From IMG/VR virus record IMGVR_UViG_3300029567_000110: a stretch of 5,324 bases of DNA; one strand, written 5' to 3'. The translations under genes were made by a program, and so were the position numbers. The notes beneath the pieces were generated by a model. That model had not been told where the DNA came from, did not search any database, and saw only the letters and a program-made list of their open reading frames with translations. The stretch's first letter is position 1; each line of letters opens with the position of its first letter. Shown here piece by piece: positions 81 to 5,324 of the stretch. Source of the stretch: a virus. Taxonomy: Duplodnaviria; Heunggongvirae; Uroviricota; Caudoviricetes.

Positions 81-160
81 GATTCACTTAATTAGCGCGC
101 AGGGAGAAGAGGGATGGACCCCGAGCAGGGGAGTGCTATTTATCTGGAAGGATTCTGTTG

Positions 161-421
161 ATGAAAATCGAAGAATTGGTTGAAATTTTTAGTGAAGATG
201 GCCTCTATACTGTGCGCGTTGAGAATGGCTCCATTGTCAGCCACTGCCGTATTAAATGTTTACAGTCTCAACAAAGGAAGAGTGGGGCGGCGTTAATTTA
301 CTTTGTGGATGGACTGGTGACGGATGGTTTTATTTTGCGTGAAAATGAATTTGTCACATCATTGCAGTCTCTGAAAGAAGCTGGGCTTAAGGCTGGTTTT
401 TCTGCTTTTGAAGATGAGTGA
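161..421 (+). CDS. Hypothetical small prophage protein (86 aa from ATG 161; ORF track begins at TTG 158)
   Basis: Open frame 158-421. ATG at 161 follows GGAAGG (145-150) at about 10 nt spacing. Translation has a balanced composition with no low-complexity runs. No family recognised. Confidence 0.45.
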   Translation: MKIEELVEIFSEDGLYTVRVENGSIVSHCRIKCLQSQQRKSGAALIYFVDGLVTDGFILRENEFVTSLQSLKEAGLKAGFSAFEDE

Positions 422-487: not shown

Positions 488-766
488 ATGGCGCAAAATT
501 CCAGATCACACAATTCTGATAATCTCGCCGTCCTTGCCAGCAGGCGCGGGCGGCGTTCTCACGCATTCAAATCTGACTGGTTCCAGCATGATCCATGCAC
601 TGAAGAACAGGCCGAATGGCTGATTCAGAACTACCGCAGACGTGGGTATGAGTTTAGGAAAGCCCTCAGCCTCGATTATCGTCACTGGATAATCTACGTC
701 AGACTCCCTTATTCCGAACGCCCACCGCGTCCGTCCCGCACATTCCAGCAACGCATCTGGAGGTAA
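488..766 (+). CDS. Hypothetical small basic prophage protein (92 aa)
   Basis: ATG 488 preceded by GGAG (477-480). Stop TAA at 764-766 is 1 nt before the GTG start of the next ORF, suggesting coupled expression. No family recognised. Confidence 0.5.
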   Translation: MAQNSRSHNSDNLAVLASRRGRRSHAFKSDWFQHDPCTEEQAEWLIQNYRRRGYEFRKALSLDYRHWIIYVRLPYSERPPRPSRTFQQRIWR

Positions 767-767
767 C

Positions 768-1826
768 GTGCGGGTATTGCTTCGACCTGTTCCGGTACCG
801 GAACTTGGGCTGGTGGTGCTAAAGCCGGGCCGTGAATCCATGCAGGTATTTCATAACCCTCGAGTGCTGGTGGAGCCGGAACCGAAAAGCATGCGTGGTC
901 TGCCGTCCGGAGTTGTTCCTGCCGTTCGCCAGCCGCTGGCGGAAGATAAATCATTACTGCCATTTTTCAGCGACGAACGGGTGATTCGTGCTGCCGGCGG
1001 CGCTGGTGCACTGTCTGACTGGCTCCTGCGTCATGTTAAATCCTGCCAGTGGCCTCATGGTGACTATCACCACAGCGAAACCGTCATACATCGTTACGGC
1101 ACCGGCGCGATGGTGTTGTGCTGGCACTGCGACAACCAGCTGCGTGACCAGACCTCAGAATCACTTGAGCAACTTGCTCAACAAAACCTGACAGCATGGA
1201 TGATTGACGTCATCCGTCACGCAATAAGCGGTGCGCAGGAGCGGGAATTATCGCTGGCTGAATTATCCTGGTGGGCTGTCTGCAATCAGGTGGCGGACGT
1301 ACTACCGGAGGTAGTATTACGTCGTTCTCTGGGGTTACGTGCGGAAAAAATCCGCTCAGTGTACCGCGAAAGCGACATCATACCGGGAGAACCGACCGCC
1401 ACCAGCATGCTGAAGCAGCGCACAAATAATATTGCGTTACCGCCTCACGTCCACCAGCAACAGAACCCACCACAGGAAAAGACGGTGGTCAGCATTGCCG
1501 TTGATCCGGAGTCTCCGACTCAGTATCTCCAGCGTCAGAAACCACAACGGGAAGAGATGCCCGTATACACGCGCTGGGTAAAAACGCAGAAATGCGTGAC
1601 GTGTGGCAATCAGGCAGATGATCCGCATCACATCATTGGTCATGGACTGGGAGGGATGGGAACAAAGGCTGATGATTTGTTTGTTATTCCGCTGTGCCGT
1701 AAATGTCATAACGAACTGCACGCCGGGGTAAAAGATTTTGAAGAAAAACACGGCAGCCAGCTGTTGTTGCTGATTCGTTTTTTAATGCACGCGAGAAATT
1801 CGGGTGTCCTGAAGTGGAAAGCATGA
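768..1826 (+). CDS. Prophage protein with C-terminal HNH-like zinc-finger motif (DUF968-like; occupies the NinG/Rap position next to rusA)
   Basis: 352-aa ORF. C-terminal motif C-V-T-C ... D-P-H-H ... C-R-K-C-H-N-E-L-H (CxxC...HH...CxxCH...H) is typical of HNH-type nuclease folds. GTG 768 follows GGAGG (759-763) with only 4 nt spacing; ATG 840 or ATG 891 are alternative starts. DUF968 assignment is from memory of E. coli prophage proteins, not from a search. Confidence 0.65.
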   Translation: MRVLLRPVPVPELGLVVLKPGRESMQVFHNPRVLVEPEPKSMRGLPSGVVPAVRQPLAEDKSLLPFFSDERVIRAAGGAGALSDWLLRHVKSCQWPHGDYHHSETVIHRYGTGAMVLCWHCDNQLRDQTSESLEQLAQQNLTAWMIDVIRHAISGAQERELSLAELSWWAVCNQVADVLPEVVLRRSLGLRAEKIRSVYRESDIIPGEPTATSMLKQRTNNIALPPHVHQQQNPPQEKTVVSIAVDPESPTQYLQRQKPQREEMPVYTRWVKTQKCVTCGNQADDPHHIIGHGLGGMGTKADDLFVIPLCRKCHNELHAGVKDFEEKHGSQLLLLIRFLMHARNSGVLKWKA

Positions 1827-2192
1827 ATGACTGAACGCATAGAATTTGTTTTGCCTTACCCGCCAACGGTGAATACCTACTGGCGACGTCATGGCAATAC
1901 GTATTTCATCTCGGAAGCCGGAAAGCGTTATCGCCGTGATGTGGCGCTTATTGTTCGCCAGCAGCGGCTGAAATTAAACCTGTCCGGAAGGCTGACGATA
2001 AAGATCATTGCAGAACCACCGGATAAGCGCCGCCATGACCTGGACAATATCCTGAAAGCACCACTGGATGCGCTGACGCATGCCGGACTACTTATAGACG
2101 ACGAGCAGTTTGATGAAATCAATATTGTGCGCGGTCAGCTCGTTCCTGGTGGGCGGCTGGGGATAAAAATCACAGAACTGGAGTGCGCATGA
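1827..2192 (+). CDS. rusA: Holliday-junction resolvase RusA (crossover junction endodeoxyribonuclease)
   Basis: 121-aa translation shares the RusA pattern with E. coli RusA as recalled: LPYPP..N.Y.R, PD(K/R)RRxDLDN, DALT.AG, DD.Q, GGRL..ITE. Size is right (about 120 aa). ATG 1827 directly follows the upstream TGA (1824-1826). Confidence 0.9.
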   Translation: MTERIEFVLPYPPTVNTYWRRHGNTYFISEAGKRYRRDVALIVRQQRLKLNLSGRLTIKIIAEPPDKRRHDLDNILKAPLDALTHAGLLIDDEQFDEINIVRGQLVPGGRLGIKITELECA

Positions 2193-2878
2193 ATAACCAG
2201 TATTTACAGTTTGTGCGTGAGCAGCTCATTATCGCCACCGCTGATTTGAGTGGGGCAACAAAAGGTCAACTTGAAGCCTGGCAGGAGAATGCCATGTTCG
2301 ATACAGGGCGTTACAGGCGTAAAAAAATCCGGTACCGCGATGAAGTGACCGGAAAAATGATCACGCTGGATAATCCACCAATCCCGGGGAAACAATCGCT
2401 GGCAAAGAGGACGTCAATTCCTCTGGTAAGTCAGGTTGAGTTTTCGACATCATCATGGCGACGGGCGGTTCTGTCTCTTGAAGAACACCATAAAGCCTGG
2501 TTGCTGTGGTGTTACAGCGGCAGCATTTGCTGGGAACACCAGATTGCGATAACACAGTGGGCGTGGAATGAATTTAACGCGCAATCTGGTACCAGAAAAA
2601 TTGCGGAGAAAACACGGGAGCGCCTGAAAAAATTAATCTGGCTGGCGGCGCAGGATGTCAGGGGATGGGTAGCCGGGCATGAGAACTACCAGCGACAGGA
2701 ACTTGCCAGGCTGTGTGGAATTAAACCTGACAACTGGAGCCATAATTATGCGAACTACTGGCGTGAGATGTGCGACATTTTTAAGAATCTTGATACAGAA
2801 TCCTTGATTTGCACAGTGAAAATGAGAACACAACAAAAAGCGACCTTTTCGCGACGAGATGTTGCAAAAATCAATTAA
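2189..2878 (+). CDS. Putative late-gene antiterminator Q (assigned by position; family not confirmed by motif)
   Basis: 230-aa ORF. ATG 2189 overlaps the rusA stop (ATGA at 2189-2192); the ORF track starts it at GTG 2183. It lies immediately downstream of rusA and immediately upstream of a promoter-like element and strong terminator, which is the canonical ninG-rusA-Q-PR'-tR' order of lambdoid phages. No lambda-Q CxxC zinc finger was seen, so this would be a different Q family if correct. Confidence 0.55.
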   Translation: MNNQYLQFVREQLIIATADLSGATKGQLEAWQENAMFDTGRYRRKKIRYRDEVTGKMITLDNPPIPGKQSLAKRTSIPLVSQVEFSTSSWRRAVLSLEEHHKAWLLWCYSGSICWEHQIAITQWAWNEFNAQSGTRKIAEKTRERLKKLIWLAAQDVRGWVAGHENYQRQELARLCGIKPDNWSHNYANYWREMCDIFKNLDTESLICTVKMRTQQKATFSRRDVAKIN

Positions 2879-2900
2879 ATCGCGTACATTTCGTGTAAAT
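2862..2900 (+). promoter_or_regulatory. Candidate late promoter PR' / Q-utilisation region overlapping the 3' end of the Q-like gene
   Basis: TTGCAA (2862-2867), 17-nt spacer, TACATT (2885-2890), followed by the AT-rich TGTAAATTTGATATT. Position relative to the Q-like gene and the terminator about 60 nt downstream fits PR'-tR' architecture. Hexamer match is modest. Confidence 0.3.
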
Positions 2901-2942
2901 TTGATATTTCGCCGATTTTGTACGCGATGGCAAAGTAAGCAA

Positions 2943-2967
2943 GGCCCGCCGCTGAGCGGGTTTTTTT
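2943..2967 (+). terminator. Rho-independent terminator (tR'-like)
   Basis: Stem CCCGC (2945-2949) pairs with GCGGG (2956-2960), 6-nt loop CGCTGA, then T7 run (2961-2967). GC-rich perfect stem, + strand only. Confidence 0.8.
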
Positions 2968-3090
2968 ATGCCTGAAAAATGGTACAGAACATTAAACACG
3001 CTGGTGGTTGCGAATACTGGTCTTTCAGCTTGCTGGCTTTTTCGACAAGAGTTATTGGTATGTCACGTTAACCAGAAAAGGAAAAAAGAC

Positions 3091-3288
3091 ATGCTAAAAC
3101 AGCAGGATATGACCGAAACCGCCAGAGTGGTGTTTAATGAATTAAGCGTCACCGAGCCGGCGACCGTCGGGGAAATTGCGCAGAATACTTACCTTTCACG
3201 TGAACGCTGCCAGTTAATACTGACCCAGCTTGTTATGGCGGGTCTGGCAGATTATCAGTTCGGTTGTTACAGACGCCTTCCGCAGTGA
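3091..3288 (+). CDS. Small winged-helix (wHTH) DNA-binding protein, 65 aa, immediately upstream of the methyltransferase
   Basis: ATG 3091 preceded by AAGGA (3078-3082) at 8 nt spacing. Translation MLKQQDMTETARVVFNELSVTEPATVGEIAQNTYLSRERCQLILTQLVMAGLADYQ has the spacing of small wHTH regulators (T-x-x-EIA ... L-x-x-L-x-x-AGL), loosely PapI/FaeA-like. The ORF track's longer form from ATG 2968 would start inside the terminator T-run and is unlikely. Confidence 0.5.
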   Translation: MLKQQDMTETARVVFNELSVTEPATVGEIAQNTYLSRERCQLILTQLVMAGLADYQFGCYRRLPQ

Positions 3289-3342
3289 AGGTTTTTTAAT
3301 TTGTGGTAATGGGCGGCTGGTGGGTGTTAGCGGCACCTGCCA

Positions 3343-3392
3343 GCCATCTGCTCATGCGTTGGGGTCACAAGCAAACCTCAGGCCCATCTGCT
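3343..3392 (+). repeat. Direct repeat CCATCTGCT x2 (3343-3351 and 3384-3392) in the wHTH-methyltransferase intergenic region; candidate operator
   Basis: Exact 9-bp direct repeat with 41-bp spacing (about four helical turns), between the wHTH stop (3288) and the methyltransferase start (3439). Flanks are also similar: CCATCTGCTcaTGCG versus CCATCTGCTtTGCG. Confidence 0.3.
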
Positions 3393-3438
3393 TTGCGCAA
3401 AAGCGGTATGAGCCTATCAGAGAAGTGCTTATTGATCT

Positions 3439-4485
3439 ATGGCTAATACTGTAAAAATATCCAGTTATGAGTTAATCAACGCTGATTGCCTGGAATTTAT
3501 CCAGACCTTACCGGAAAACTCTGTCGATCTGATAGTCACAGACCCGCCATACTTTAAAGTGAAGCCCGAGGGCTGGGATAACCAGTGGAAGGGCGACGAT
3601 GATTACCTGAAATGGCTGGATCAGTGTCTGGCGCAATTCTGGCGGGTACTGAAACCTGCCGGAAGTCTCTACCTGTTCTGTGGTCATCGCCTGGCATCTG
3701 ATATCGAAATCATGATGCGTCAGCGCTTTAATGTGCTGAACCACATTATCTGGGCGAAGCCGTCCGGACGCTGGAACGGATGCAACAAGGAAAGCCTGCG
3801 GGCGTATTTTCCGGCAACAGAACGCATTCTGTTTGCTGAACATTATCAGGGTCCATACCAGCCCAAAAATGACGGCTATGCGGCAAAGGGGCGCGAGCTA
3901 AAACAGCACGTCATGGCCCCGCTGATTTCTTACTTTCGTGATGCGCGTGAATCACTGGGAATAACGTCAAAACAGATAGCGGAAGCCACCGGAAAGAAAA
4001 ACATGGCTTCGCACTGGTTTGGTACCAGTCAGTGGCAGTTACCAAACGAGGGTGATTACAACAAATTGCAGGCGTTGTTTGCGCGTGTTGCGGCAGAAAA
4101 ACATCAGCGCGGGGAACTGGAAAAGCCACACCACCAGCTGGTCAGCACATACAGTGAACTGAACCGGCAATATGCCAGCCTGCTGGAAGAGTACAAATCC
4201 CTGCGGCGTTATTTTTCCGTATCGGCAGCCGTTCCTTATACGGATGTCTGGACGCATAAACCCGTGCAGTTTTATCCGGGCAAACATCCCTGTGAAAAAC
4301 CGGCGGATATGCTCCGGCAAATAATCAATGCCAGCAGTCGCCCTGGTGATTTGGTTGCTGATTTTTTTATGGGGTCTGGCTCAACAATAAAAGCGGCACT
4401 TTCACTGGGACGCCGTGCGATTGGCGTGGAACTGGAGGAAGAGAGATTTAATCAGACTGTAAGTGAAATAAAAAATAATCGTTAA
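3439..4485 (+). CDS. Beta-class DNA amino-methyltransferase (N6-adenine or N4-cytosine), no adjacent restriction endonuclease
   Basis: 348-aa ORF. Motif IV DPPY (LIVTDPPYF) near the N-terminus, HPCEKP, and AdoMet motif I FFMGSGST near the C-terminus. The IV-then-I order defines beta-class amino-methyltransferases. No endonuclease-like ORF on either side. Confidence 0.9.
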   Translation: MANTVKISSYELINADCLEFIQTLPENSVDLIVTDPPYFKVKPEGWDNQWKGDDDYLKWLDQCLAQFWRVLKPAGSLYLFCGHRLASDIEIMMRQRFNVLNHIIWAKPSGRWNGCNKESLRAYFPATERILFAEHYQGPYQPKNDGYAAKGRELKQHVMAPLISYFRDARESLGITSKQIAEATGKKNMASHWFGTSQWQLPNEGDYNKLQALFARVAAEKHQRGELEKPHHQLVSTYSELNRQYASLLEEYKSLRRYFSVSAAVPYTDVWTHKPVQFYPGKHPCEKPADMLRQIINASSRPGDLVADFFMGSGSTIKAALSLGRRAIGVELEEERFNQTVSEIKNNR

Positions 4486-4564
4486 ATACGGATAACATTA
4501 TTTCTGAAATTAAGAAATAATAGAAATATATACATATGTTTACGAATATTAACGTGAATTTCCA

Positions 4565-4592
4565 TTGAAAAGAGAACAGGCATCATTAGTAT
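4565..4592 (+). promoter_or_regulatory. Candidate sigma70 promoter (TTGAAA-N16-TAGTAT) in the AT-rich region after the methyltransferase
   Basis: TTGAAA (4565-4570), 16-nt spacer, TAGTAT (4587-4592), inside a stretch of about 25-30% GC (4486-4600). It would drive a + strand transcript into the ORF-poor 4600-5110 region. Confidence 0.3.
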
Positions 4593-4628
4593 TAATTTGA
4601 GTTCCGAGGGTATACCCCGAAGAACCAG

Positions 4629-4703
4629 TGCCGACTTAGTTCAGCAATCAGAGCAGGTGGCTTGTAACATCAGGTCACCAGTTCGATTTCTCAGTCGGTA
4701 CCG
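4629..4703 (+). other. tRNA-like fragment (possible decayed tRNA gene): acceptor-stem and D-arm-like, no canonical anticodon or T arm
   Basis: GCCGACT (4630-4636) pairs with AGTCGGT (4693-4699) over 7 bp including one G:U. It is followed by TA-GTTCAG...AGAGC-A, resembling the canonical tRNA U8-A9-GCTCAG...AGAGC D-arm, and 3' of the stem is A-CCG (near CCA). No 5-bp anticodon or T stem could be folded. A second T-arm-like hairpin GCGGG-TCGATT-CCCGC sits at 4707-4722. Confidence 0.2.
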
Positions 4704-5084
4704 TATGCGGGTCGATTCCCGCTGTTCCAGAAGTAACGAGATAGGTAGTTTTGGGCGCTGGCACATTAAATATGTGGGATGTTTCACCCTCTCTCCTTAC
4801 CGCATCCAGCCTGTAATGAAAGTTATTTGTTACGGTACCAGTGCCATCTTTTTACAATAGCGGAATGGTGCATTATTGGTAGATATTTTGTATTTCATGG
4901 CAGGGTCGGTGATGCATCATTCCGGTGTTGTAAATAACACCGCCGGGGTGTTCCTCAGTGCGGGGGTGGTTCAAGAGTCGGTTTAGCGGGAAGCCACAGT
5001 ATCCATACAGTATGGAGTACTTCGGGAGGCACCCGACGCCCTGGTTTTACTACAATAAAAATAACTTATCTTCTGCATTGACCA

Positions 5085-5109
5085 GCCGCCCCCACCGGGC
5101 GGTTTTTTT
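5085..5109 (+). terminator. Rho-independent terminator (+ strand)
   Basis: Stem CCGCCC (5086-5091) pairs with GGGCGG (5097-5102), loop CCACC, then T7 run (5103-5109). Confidence 0.7.
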
Positions 5110-5194
5110 ATTCTGAATTCCCCAAAAAAAGAAAACACGGACACTGATAATGCCCGTGTGGCAATGCCATGTAAGTCAGCGATGAATATGGCGC

Positions 5195-5228
5195 AAAAAA
5201 AAAGCGCGGCTGTCGGATTAAAGCCGCG
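5195..5228 (-). terminator. Candidate minus-strand intrinsic terminator (hairpin followed by a T-run on the - strand)
   Basis: On the + strand an A9 run (5195-5203) precedes a 7-bp stem CGCGGCT (5205-5211) / AGCCGCG (5222-5228) with a 10-nt loop. Read on the - strand this is hairpin then U-run. It would end a leftward transcript starting beyond the window edge. Confidence 0.4.
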
Positions 5229-5324
5229 GGACAAAGTCCGTGAAGAAGAATAAGCATCGGTCTCCTCCAGGAGACGAGTTGATATTACTAAGCTTTAAAA
5301 ATGGTTTAAATCCCCGTATTAACC

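Follow-up and report, generated by a model that had tools for sequence, protein, structure and literature searches.

The mom gene of phage Mu encodes a toxic, broadly acting DNA modifier that is silent in lysogens and expressed late; its start lies in an inhibitory stem-loop, and a gene for a regulator of ~60 amino acids (aa) is located just upstream. Mutually exclusive pairings are the principle of the translational attenuation leaders of ermC and cat and of the trp-type 1:2 / 2:3 / 3:4 attenuators, and the enzyme regulated in erm is an adenine N6-methyltransferase. Here a locus is described that can be compared with both types of system. It lies in a stretch of 5,324 nucleotides (nt) of viral DNA (Duplodnaviria; Heunggongvirae; Uroviricota; Caudoviricetes; IMG/VR virus record IMGVR_UViG_3300029567_000110), hereafter called the window, and consists of a gene for a small protein, a leader and a gene for a DNA adenine methyltransferase (Table 1).

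M.EcoGII and M.EcoGI of Escherichia coli O104:H4 C227-11 share with the window enzyme the beta-class motif order, a length of 348-349 aa and a prophage location (Murray et al. 2018, PMC5778455); the window enzyme is another allele, carried by another prophage. M.EcoGII accepts adenine in every sequence context; its native lysogen does not express it, and constitutive expression yields slow-growing, unstable clones (PMC5778455). Mom and M.EcoGII have been paired in a 2025 review as 'silent in lysogens and toxic' (PMC12707154). Neither the small gene upstream nor the terminators nor the leader are described in the published work on M.EcoGII (PMC5778455). The enzyme is in wide use as a reagent for the mapping of chromatin and RNA, and it is one of the commonest prophage methyltransferases in E. 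coli and Shiga-toxin phages. Other orphan N6-adenine methyltransferases of phages (T4 Dam, P1 Dmt, 933W M.EcoVT2 and the alpha-class promiscuous M.HaeV/Hia5 type) are assumed or have been shown to counter restriction or to serve packaging; these are GATC-specific or alpha-class enzymes, whereas the window enzyme is of the beta class and, judged by its family, has no sequence specificity.

As a working analogy, phage Mu com-mom appears to come closest to the window locus. In both cases a small gene lies upstream of the modification gene, and in the window too an inhibitory structure is predicted at the start of that gene. However, Com is a zinc-finger RNA-binding protein, whereas the window protein is a winged helix with two conserved cysteines only; Mom is not a methyltransferase, and the two window genes, which do not overlap, have 150 nt between them. 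Membership of the Com type, which would call for a Cys4 zinc finger, was thus rejected and, because the proteins are unrelated in fold, the comparison is to be read as 'works like'. With the ermC, cat and trp-type leaders the window leader shares three exclusive pairings, of which the last is predicted to occlude the initiation region, and a short open reading frame (ORF) that starts in region 1. It differs in having no conserved peptide or stalling motif, no convincing Shine-Dalgarno sequence for this ORF and no U-run after the 3:4 helix. The explanation that is preferred here, at a probability of roughly 0.6, is that the window carries a Q-dependent, late anti-restriction methyltransferase locked by terminators and by a translational switch in its leader. 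It builds on the enzyme family, the genetic context, the winged-helix fold of the small protein and the conservation and covariation of the leader, as observed at this locus and its relatives.

The methyltransferase and its family

A first-pass annotation of the window, made from the letters alone, had described an orphan beta-class DNA methyltransferase. The enzyme indeed is an orphan beta-class N6-adenine methyltransferase; it belongs to the characterised M.EcoGII family. Motif IV (DPPY, residues 35-38, nt 3541-3552) is located N-terminal to motif I (FFMGSGST, residues 309-316, nt 4363-4386), and the target-recognition domain is central. The profile searches that had been recommended for both proteins returned PF01555 for the methyltransferase (153 bits against a cut-off of 26.7, E 1.2e-44, residues 29-340), and sub-threshold winged-helix Pfam matches together with phrog_331 for the small protein. 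PADLOC matched the enzyme to MTase_II PDLC03265 (E 2.9e-152), and the nearest solved structures are ordinary beta-class enzymes. In a BLASTP comparison with M.EcoGII, for which the reference sequence was Table S1 of PMC11551740 in a machine-read PDF, 295 of 347 residues were identical (85%) over the full length, and the match covers the central, four-helix target-recognition domain without gaps. The NCBIfam equivalog cut-offs were not reached for CcrM (NF050803, 74.6 bits against 830) or for the YhdJ type (NF008572, 111.9 against 292), and an identity as Dam, CcrM or YhdJ orphan was ruled out on these scores. With such scores, and with no adjoining endonuclease gene in the window or in four annotated relatives, the situation that the first-pass annotation had named as fatal to its proposal, a Dam/CcrM-like orphan with a restriction gene nearby, was not encountered.

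On this basis the enzyme is classified as an M.EcoGII orthologue and not as a new orphan; it is an ordinary and very common prophage copy. Very probably it behaves like M.EcoGII. Non-specific adenine methylation would be expected from its family, and in view of the 85% identity its 'target motif' is likely to be every adenine. Phage 1720a-02, cited by the authors of the M.EcoGII study as the source of a very similar enzyme (PMC5778455), matches the window locus and carries both the module and the leader.

As the first-pass annotation had stated, no endonuclease-like ORF was found next to the methyltransferase in the window (ORF map, Pfam). In four annotated relatives none adjoins the module either, phiP27 being the exception; the flanks in relatives are Q upstream, and tRNAs, stx and lysis genes downstream. 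A classical type II restriction-modification pair was ruled out, as there is no adjacent cognate endonuclease gene. The anti-restriction function proposed earlier is the accepted one for the M.EcoGII-type family. In phiP27 a 409-aa gene of the GIY-YIG nuclease family (P27p22, L001 4700-5929) is inserted upstream of the small gene, on the far side of which the Q-like gene follows; a counterpart is missing from the window.

A conserved leader RNA

A lineup across genera revealed that a block of ~140 nt abutting the methyltransferase ATG is conserved and that its changes preserve pairing. Conservation is higher in the leader than in either of the two genes. At the nucleotide level it is 81, 68 and 80% identical to its counterparts in Salmonella, Proteus and Rosenbergiella, respectively, compared to 73, 64 and 67% for the methyltransferase gene (39-49% at third codon positions) and 69, 55 and 55% for the small gene. 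With a covariance model (R1) a single copy per locus was found in 63 of 100 sources, in each case on the + strand and with its end at the methyltransferase ATG, and the leader is retained in 13 loci that have no small gene. In the phage collection all annotated records among the matches listed that have a full-length leader match carry it beside a methyltransferase gene. Many of the pairs in the leader are G-U pairs, which are possible on the + strand only, and the RNA strand is therefore fixed. Rfam 15 gave four weak hits in a cmscan of the whole window (E<=1, permissive filters), none of them in 3289-3438, and a full-text literature search with the leader sequence returned no paper; the leader is apparently undescribed. 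That it is a functional cis-regulatory RNA is considered probable. In the Xenorhabdus and Photorhabdus loci (L043-L070) GTGAAATGG and a P2-like hairpin are kept ~80-130 nt 5' of the methyltransferase ATG; the U-run that often follows looks like a terminator, and regions 3-6 of the long leader are missing.

For the window leader a minimum free energy (MFE) of -63.1 kcal/mol was calculated (z -3.07). Single-sequence folds from 10 species share one architecture, designated fold X, and a helix that occludes the start is present in all 10 MFE folds. This long-range 3:4 helix pairs positions -13 to -1 of the methyltransferase AUG, the invariant UGAUC included; a canonical Shine-Dalgarno sequence was not found before the methyltransferase. 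The 2:3 hairpin of the alternative fold, fold Y, is incompatible both with P1 and with the start-occluding 3:4 helix. Of what is expected of an attenuator-type leader, the window leader has helices 1:2, 2:3 and 3:4 that are mutually exclusive and show consistent or compensatory changes, the last one covering the downstream start.

Both folds were scored on 41 distinct sequences from outside the Escherichia clade with self-consistent alignment columns (A6), because MAFFT shifts the distal registers of P2 and P4 between clades and the R1 realignment did not repair this. Fold X has 90.3% and fold Y 87.4% of cells paired, each with 12 pairs changed on both sides, while slid controls reached 29-42% and 2-9 pairs. 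None of 500 shuffles reached the observed values on four of five measures; on 'further pair types' 125-145 of 500 did. The 3:4 helix by itself has 90.2% of cells paired and 4 pairs changed on both sides. The clearest signal comes from pair 3349-3373, which is C-G in 20, A-U in 8, U-A in 5 and U-G in 3 of the 41 sequences. Position 3373 also tracks 3426 of the rival 3:4 helix, and this triple covariation of 3349, 3373 and 3426 fits one strand that alternates between two partners. In P2, GGCUGGUGGGUG/CACC..CCAGCC of the window corresponds to GACUGUAAAAGUG/CACCUUUACAGUC in Proteus. Pairing is likewise preserved between GGCUGGUGGGUG..CACCUGCCAGCC of the window and both GACUGUAAAAGUG..CACCUUUACAGUC and GACAGUGAGGAUG..CAUCCCCGCUGUC of Proteus. 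Forcing fold Y cost 3.5-7 kcal/mol in six species and left UGAUCUAUG unpaired. RNAalifold recovered the structure only in part from the raw MAFFT alignment, and in G-rich stretches a crude all-against-all column scan gave too much noise. A local hairpin (ATCAG/CTGAT) just 5' of the AUG was considered and dropped, position 3433 having changed to G in several genera without compensation. The leader may be able to hide the start codon of the methyltransferase, and this could account for a toxic enzyme being kept off.

The upstream ORF (uORF) in the leader stops, in the window clade, 5 nt past the methyltransferase AUG (3444-3446), a position that would be compatible with coupled reinitiation. In other genera it has 3-43 codons and its peptides are unrelated. 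The duplicated 9-bp motif that the first-pass annotation had noticed between the two genes was recovered as CCATCTGCT at both places, with ~0.04 exact 9-mer repeats expected in 150 nt. The exact repeat is limited to the Escherichia clade, the other genera having CCATTCGCT and CCCACYGCT. Since its copies sit in two strands of a structured RNA leader, it is not regarded as a pair of protein sites.

The small winged-helix protein

The start of the small gene was placed at 3091 on the strength of its N-terminus, MLKxxDMT, which is kept as far away as Xenorhabdus. Residues C40, Q41, L44, T45, Q46, A50, G51 and L52 of the protein are invariant, with invariant positions on the recognition helix (RCQLxLTQ). 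The PHROG assignment is phrog_331 (E 1e-37), of unknown function. Pfam matches are sub-threshold only: TrmB (PF01978) scored 18 bits against a cut-off of 25.6, followed by MarR_2, DprA_WH and HTH_24. An exhaustive profile search of 1.84 billion representatives yielded 83 homologues at E<=1e-3, all of them short; the homologues are stand-alone proteins from Enterobacterales prophages. An AlphaFold2 model based on a 35-sequence alignment (pLDDT 91) has the topology H1-H2-H3 plus a beta-hairpin wing, which bears out the winged helix proposed earlier for this ORF. Lack of conservation, or of a winged helix-turn-helix (HTH) prediction, had been named as grounds for giving up the idea; the ORF turned out to be conserved to Xenorhabdus and the winged helix to be confidently predicted.

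The fold matches comprise IclR N-domains, the dimerisation winged helix of O-methyltransferases, OhrR/MarR, ArsR and the RNA-binding domains of SelB. A sequence search of the PDB with the small protein gave nothing meaningful (best E 0.63, YraP), and PADLOC gave no hit for it. The Prokaryotic Genome Annotation Pipeline (PGAP) labels the protein 'TrmB family transcriptional regulator', a name that reflects fold-level similarity. Membership of TrmB was rejected, the score being below the Pfam cut-off and the 65 aa comprising a winged helix only, without an effector domain of the TrmB type. The model thus confidently depicts a minimal winged helix that represents a tiny stand-alone family, and its role is taken to be that of a nucleic-acid-binding regulator specific to the module, not that of a partner enzyme.

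Matches to the stretch 2880-4600 were obtained in 2364 of 5426 complete E. coli genomes, in 1917 of these with a coverage of 80% or more, and in 45 phage records, for the most part those of Stx2-converting phages and phiP27. Together, the small gene and the methyltransferase gene are one of the commonest prophage modules in E. coli. Linkage at species level was counted with one genome per species, which gave 75 methyltransferase loci with enough upstream sequence; in 57 of them the small gene lies directly 5' of the methyltransferase, at a distance of 50-155 nt. The linked loci span Escherichia, Klebsiella, Salmonella, Buttiauxella, Rosenbergiella, Proteus, Xenorhabdus and Photorhabdus, with identities across genera down to 37-50% for the small protein and 60-68% for the methyltransferase. 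In phage phiSTEC1575-Stx2k (L243 2272-3343) and E. coli O157:H7 FRIK2455 (L244 2297-3344) the small gene is retained with its hairpin and with ~65 nt from the 5' end of the leader; the place of the remaining leader and of the methyltransferase is taken by a gene for a regulator of the AraC family (237 aa) that is unrelated, and tRNAs and stx2 come after it.

A non-coding block is conserved upstream of the small gene. CTTGCTG and CAGAGTTAYNTGT are found at a constant spacing of 17 nt from Escherichia to Xenorhabdus and Proteus, and across genera the block has the form CTTGCTG, N17, TA(T/C)NTG, T(A/G)TGT. Every genus with the small gene has it, and loci without the gene do not. It may serve the small gene as a weak promoter of its own or as an operator; in the former case, production of the winged-helix protein in the lysogen could do without Q. 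The block was not called in a promoter scan of the window, and readings of it as a sigma-54 or extended -10 promoter, judged by eye, misfit in spacing or conservation.

Late control region and terminators

The gene content identifies the window as a nin/late-control region of a lambdoid prophage, with Q as its likely upstream control point. The Q protein of E. coli NY1601, annotated as such, is 97% identical to that of the window. An accessory-cargo site after Q and tR' had been proposed for the module, and this was confirmed by the Q gene, the terminator downstream of it and the gene order in relatives (phiP27, Stx2 phages, E. coli prophages), which is Q, small gene, methyltransferase, tRNAs, (stx), holin/endolysin. 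The further statement that the module lies between tR' and the lysis genes holds within the window for tR'; the lysis genes are outside it and are seen only in relatives.

The tR'-like GC hairpin, a strong one, has 8-9 pairs and a predicted free energy of -13.1 kcal/mol, and is followed by UUUUUUU. P0, located between the two genes of the module, has 6 pairs and -6.7 kcal/mol (RNA fold in both cases), is followed by U6AAUUU and was called in a terminator scan; the two hairpins also surfaced as one direct-repeat family in a repeat search. P0 or its remnants are retained in many loci without the small gene, and its U-run is clade-specific. In the window clade P0 looks like a terminator ahead of the methyltransferase. 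Positions 2879-2928, which adjoin the stop codon of Q, are occupied by a perfect inverted repeat of 10 nt (ATCGCGTACA / TGTACGCGAT) whose arms are 30 nt apart; it coincides with the expected site of the late promoter and Q-loading region (PR'/qut).

Table 1 Features of the window (positions on the 5,324-nt stretch)
Feature	Position	Strand	Basis or remark
Small gene: stand-alone winged-helix protein, 65 aa, phrog_331	3091-3288	+	Shine-Dalgarno AAGGA at 3079-3083
M.EcoGII-family beta-class N6-adenine DNA methyltransferase, 348 aa	3439-4485	+	
Structured leader RNA of the methyltransferase mRNA, 137 nt	3302-3438	+	Covariance model, folding, conservation
5' domain of leader	3309-3355	+	P1 + P2
P1	3309-3314 with 3350-3355	+	Encloses P2; fold X
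P2 hairpin	3315-3328 with 3332-3345	+	5 pairs changed on both sides
2:3 hairpin	3347-3356 (region 2) with 3366-3375 (region 3)	+	Span 3347-3375; 5 pairs changed on both sides
Second pairing of fold Y	UGGGC 3310-3314 (region 1) with invariant GCCCA 3382-3386	+	
P4	3388-3394 with 3400-3406	+	Inner helix, fold X
Long-range 3:4 helix	3362-3367 with 3433-3438, 3369-3373 with 3426-3430	+	Span 3362-3438; encloses P6, P4
Repeat copy 1	3344-3352	+	End of P2 + region 2
Repeat copy 2	3384-3392	+	Region 5 (GCCCAU) + 5' strand of P4
uORF	3309-3446	+	Invariant AUG 3309-3311 within region 1; 45 codons in window clade
Non-coding block cTTGCTG, 17 nt, TATTGG, tatgtcac	3029-3066	+	Candidate own promoter or operator of small gene
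P0, putative second, weaker terminator	3275-3300	+	Overlaps small-gene stop codon; then UUUUUUAAUUU
tR'-like intrinsic terminator	2944-2969	+	Stem GGCCCGC/GCGGGUU, then U7
Late antiterminator Q gene, phage 82 / QuuD type	2183-2878	+	PF06323 Phage_antiter_Q, E 4.4e-85, 285 bits
RusA gene	1827-2192		ORF map + Pfam/PHROG
DUF968/HNH gene	768-1826		ORF map + Pfam; standard nin-region gene; no PADLOC hit
Phage ORF, function not assigned, phrog_1212	488-766		PHROG scan; no Pfam match
Phage ORF, function not assigned, phrog_340	158-421		PHROG scan; no Pfam match

Proposed mechanism

It is proposed that the gene is locked in the lysogen because genome-wide adenine methylation is toxic. In the lysogen, transcription would halt at tR' and at the second hairpin-terminator. 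On any read-through mRNA the leader would adopt the fold in which the 3:4 helix lies over positions -13 to -1 of the AUG. These two terminators and the occluding leader suggest that the window copy, too, would be silent in a lysogen. After induction, Q-modified RNA polymerase would pass both tR' and the second hairpin. The 2:3 hairpin together with the pairing of region 1 with GCCCA would then free the start region, allowing a burst of non-specific adenine methylation. The trigger could be a ribosome on the short uORF, which would melt P1 and P2 and so favour the open fold, or binding of the co-encoded winged-helix protein with the same effect. The enzyme would be made late and, judging by the function of its family, methylate adenines across the replicating phage DNA before packaging, and the progeny would gain broad protection from restriction systems of the next host that are sensitive to N6-methyladenine (m6A). 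The late timing and the translational occlusion are deduced from the anatomy of the locus and the covariation in its leader, and any role of the small protein in the module is a presumed one.

An action of the winged-helix protein on the leader is regarded as doubtful. A wider claim, which is rather unlikely, would be that the leader represents a new class of riboregulator for M.EcoGII-type methyltransferases, which would toggle between the start-occluded and the open fold, with the winged-helix protein as its trans-acting switch factor and functional analogue of Com; Q antitermination and the second terminator would add to this, making a three-layer lock on a toxic, genome-wide DNA modifier that more than a third of the complete E. 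coli genomes carry. This claim could be refined by feedback from the enzyme, as M.EcoGII methylates RNA and m6A weakens A-U pairs.

Several observations weigh against the proposal of a locked enzyme with a switch in its leader. P1 (the 1:2 helix) and the pairing of region 1 with GCCCA are invariant or show one-sided changes only, and the lower 3:4 helix has in some genera several mismatches at positions matching 3361/3439 and 3367/3433. The percentages of paired cells are inflated relative to the slid controls because the structure was derived from the same sequences that were scored, and related sequences can beat shuffles without any structure. In Xenorhabdus and Photorhabdus the long leader is absent and a shorter hairpin leader, often with a U-run, is found instead. 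The uORF has no convincing Shine-Dalgarno sequence, and no conserved peptide or stalling signal was found in it across genera. The small gene appears dispensable, as the methyltransferase occurs without it in 18 of the 75 species-level loci and the leader is kept regardless; nor is the link between the two genes obligatory, since the small gene also adjoins the AraC-family gene. Finally, activity, specificity, timing and toxicity would all be carried over from an enzyme that is 85% identical, and a few residues of the M.EcoGII reference may be wrong because it was taken from a machine-read PDF.

The silencing of M.EcoGII is now testable by parts, namely the two serial terminators after Q, the leader and the linked winged-helix protein. 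If the leader is a translational switch, this would explain how a genome-wide methyltransferase can be carried safely, add an RNA family that is new to Rfam and bear on the evasion of restriction by Stx and lambdoid phages that move between hosts. Otherwise the locus is one more routine example of a module already known.

Alternative explanations

The small protein had initially been likened to a controller (C) protein. Developed into an explanation of the whole module, the winged-helix protein would bind the DNA at 3029-3066, autoregulate the module promoter and set the timing and level of the methyltransferase, with the leader as an element for mRNA stability or processing. Such a circuit is a rather unlikely alternative. 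It can draw on the block CTTGCTG-N17-TAYNTG, with its fixed spacing and its co-occurrence with the small gene in all genera, on the invariance of the recognition helix, and on the many DNA-binding IclR, MarR and ArsR domains among the closest folds. The likeness to C proteins is that of a small DNA-binding protein encoded just 5' of a modification gene, possibly with a conserved site before its own gene. However, C proteins bind C-boxes as Xre-type HTH dimers and thereby time the expression of an endonuclease, whereas the window protein is a winged helix for which Pfam gave no HTH_3 or Xre match at E<=10, an endonuclease gene that could be delayed is missing, and the upstream block has no clear dyad of the C-box kind. 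Membership of the C proteins was rejected on these grounds; with 18 of 75 methyltransferase loci lacking the small gene as well, what is left of the likeness is a possible working analogy. Moreover, the block matches the sigma-70 hexamers at 3/6 + 3/6 positions only and was missed by the promoter scan, a terminator-like hairpin separates the small gene from the methyltransferase in the window clade, and the circuit leaves unexplained why compensatory alternative pairings abut the methyltransferase AUG.

The small gene could also be independent cargo, coding, for example, for an anti-defence protein or a Zalpha-like one that binds nucleic acids by shape, and linked to the module by mosaicism only, so that the functional unit would be the methyltransferase with its leader. 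This is unlikely, as the genes have the same order and spacing in Escherichia, Proteus and Xenorhabdus even though protein identity is down to 37-50%. Anchored on the small gene, the methyltransferase was found downstream in 69 of 69 viral loci with enough sequence, in a scan that returned only copies of the small protein that are 98-100% identical. In FRIK2455, where the methyltransferase is lost, the small gene is frameshifted. The Zalpha domains (ADAR1, ZBP1, PKZ, poxvirus E3L, CyHV-3 ORF112) differ from the small protein in their Z-DNA-contacting Asn, Tyr and Trp/Pro, which it has not kept: the contact residues align with Q41 and T45, and a PPxW wing is missing. Zalpha membership was rejected accordingly; the winged helices of IclR, ArsR and SelB match the small protein equally well.

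A third explanation holds that 3302-3438 is not an RNA switch but a DNA-level element with protein-binding sites, or the coding sequence of a functional leader peptide. The AUG at 3309 is indeed invariant, the 45-codon frame that ends 5 nt past the methyltransferase AUG is open in most variants of the Escherichia clade, and several leader blocks are invariant and hence give no covariation signal. A conserved leader peptide, Trp-Trp codons included, was nevertheless rejected, because the frame ranges from 3 to 45 codons and the peptide frameshifts between genera. The compensatory changes keep pairing, not codons or half-sites, and the abundant G-U pairs occur on the + strand only, which makes this explanation very unlikely. 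The epigenetic phase-variation switch suggested in the first-pass annotation, in which a PapI/FaeA-like small protein would act with adenine methylation (by Dam or the phage enzyme) and Lrp to give heritable ON/OFF states, is hardly credible: PapI is a small winged-helix protein too and a GATC at -6..-3 of the methyltransferase AUG is invariant, but no FaeA/PapI Pfam match (PF04703) was obtained at E<=10, PapI is not among the top structural matches, the only GATC within 2880-3460 is that at 3434 while a switch of the pap type depends on two GATC sites that are spaced and lie inside Lrp sites, a non-specific methyltransferase cannot encode site-selective states, and the enzyme is reported to be silent in normal growth (PMC5778455).

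Other features of the window

The two ORFs at the start of the window (158-421 and 488-766) are small, conserved in phages and located 5' of the DUF968/HNH gene. Downstream of the methyltransferase, no tRNA genes were called in the window by ARAGORN or Rfam; relatives have tRNAs there. The stretch 4625-4712 is ~80% identical to the post-methyltransferase tRNA region of relatives and has kept an acceptor-stem-like pairing, and GCGGGTCGATTCCCGC (4718-4733) resembles a lone T-arm; 4625-4735 looks like decayed tRNA genes. Further downstream, 4917-5113 shows a sub-threshold likeness to the Rfam small RNA STnc100 (E 0.13; 21.7 bits, the gathering score being 47) and is closed by a clean terminator at 5084-5113. 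The end of the window, 4839-5324, is conserved in several related prophages at 77-87% identity.

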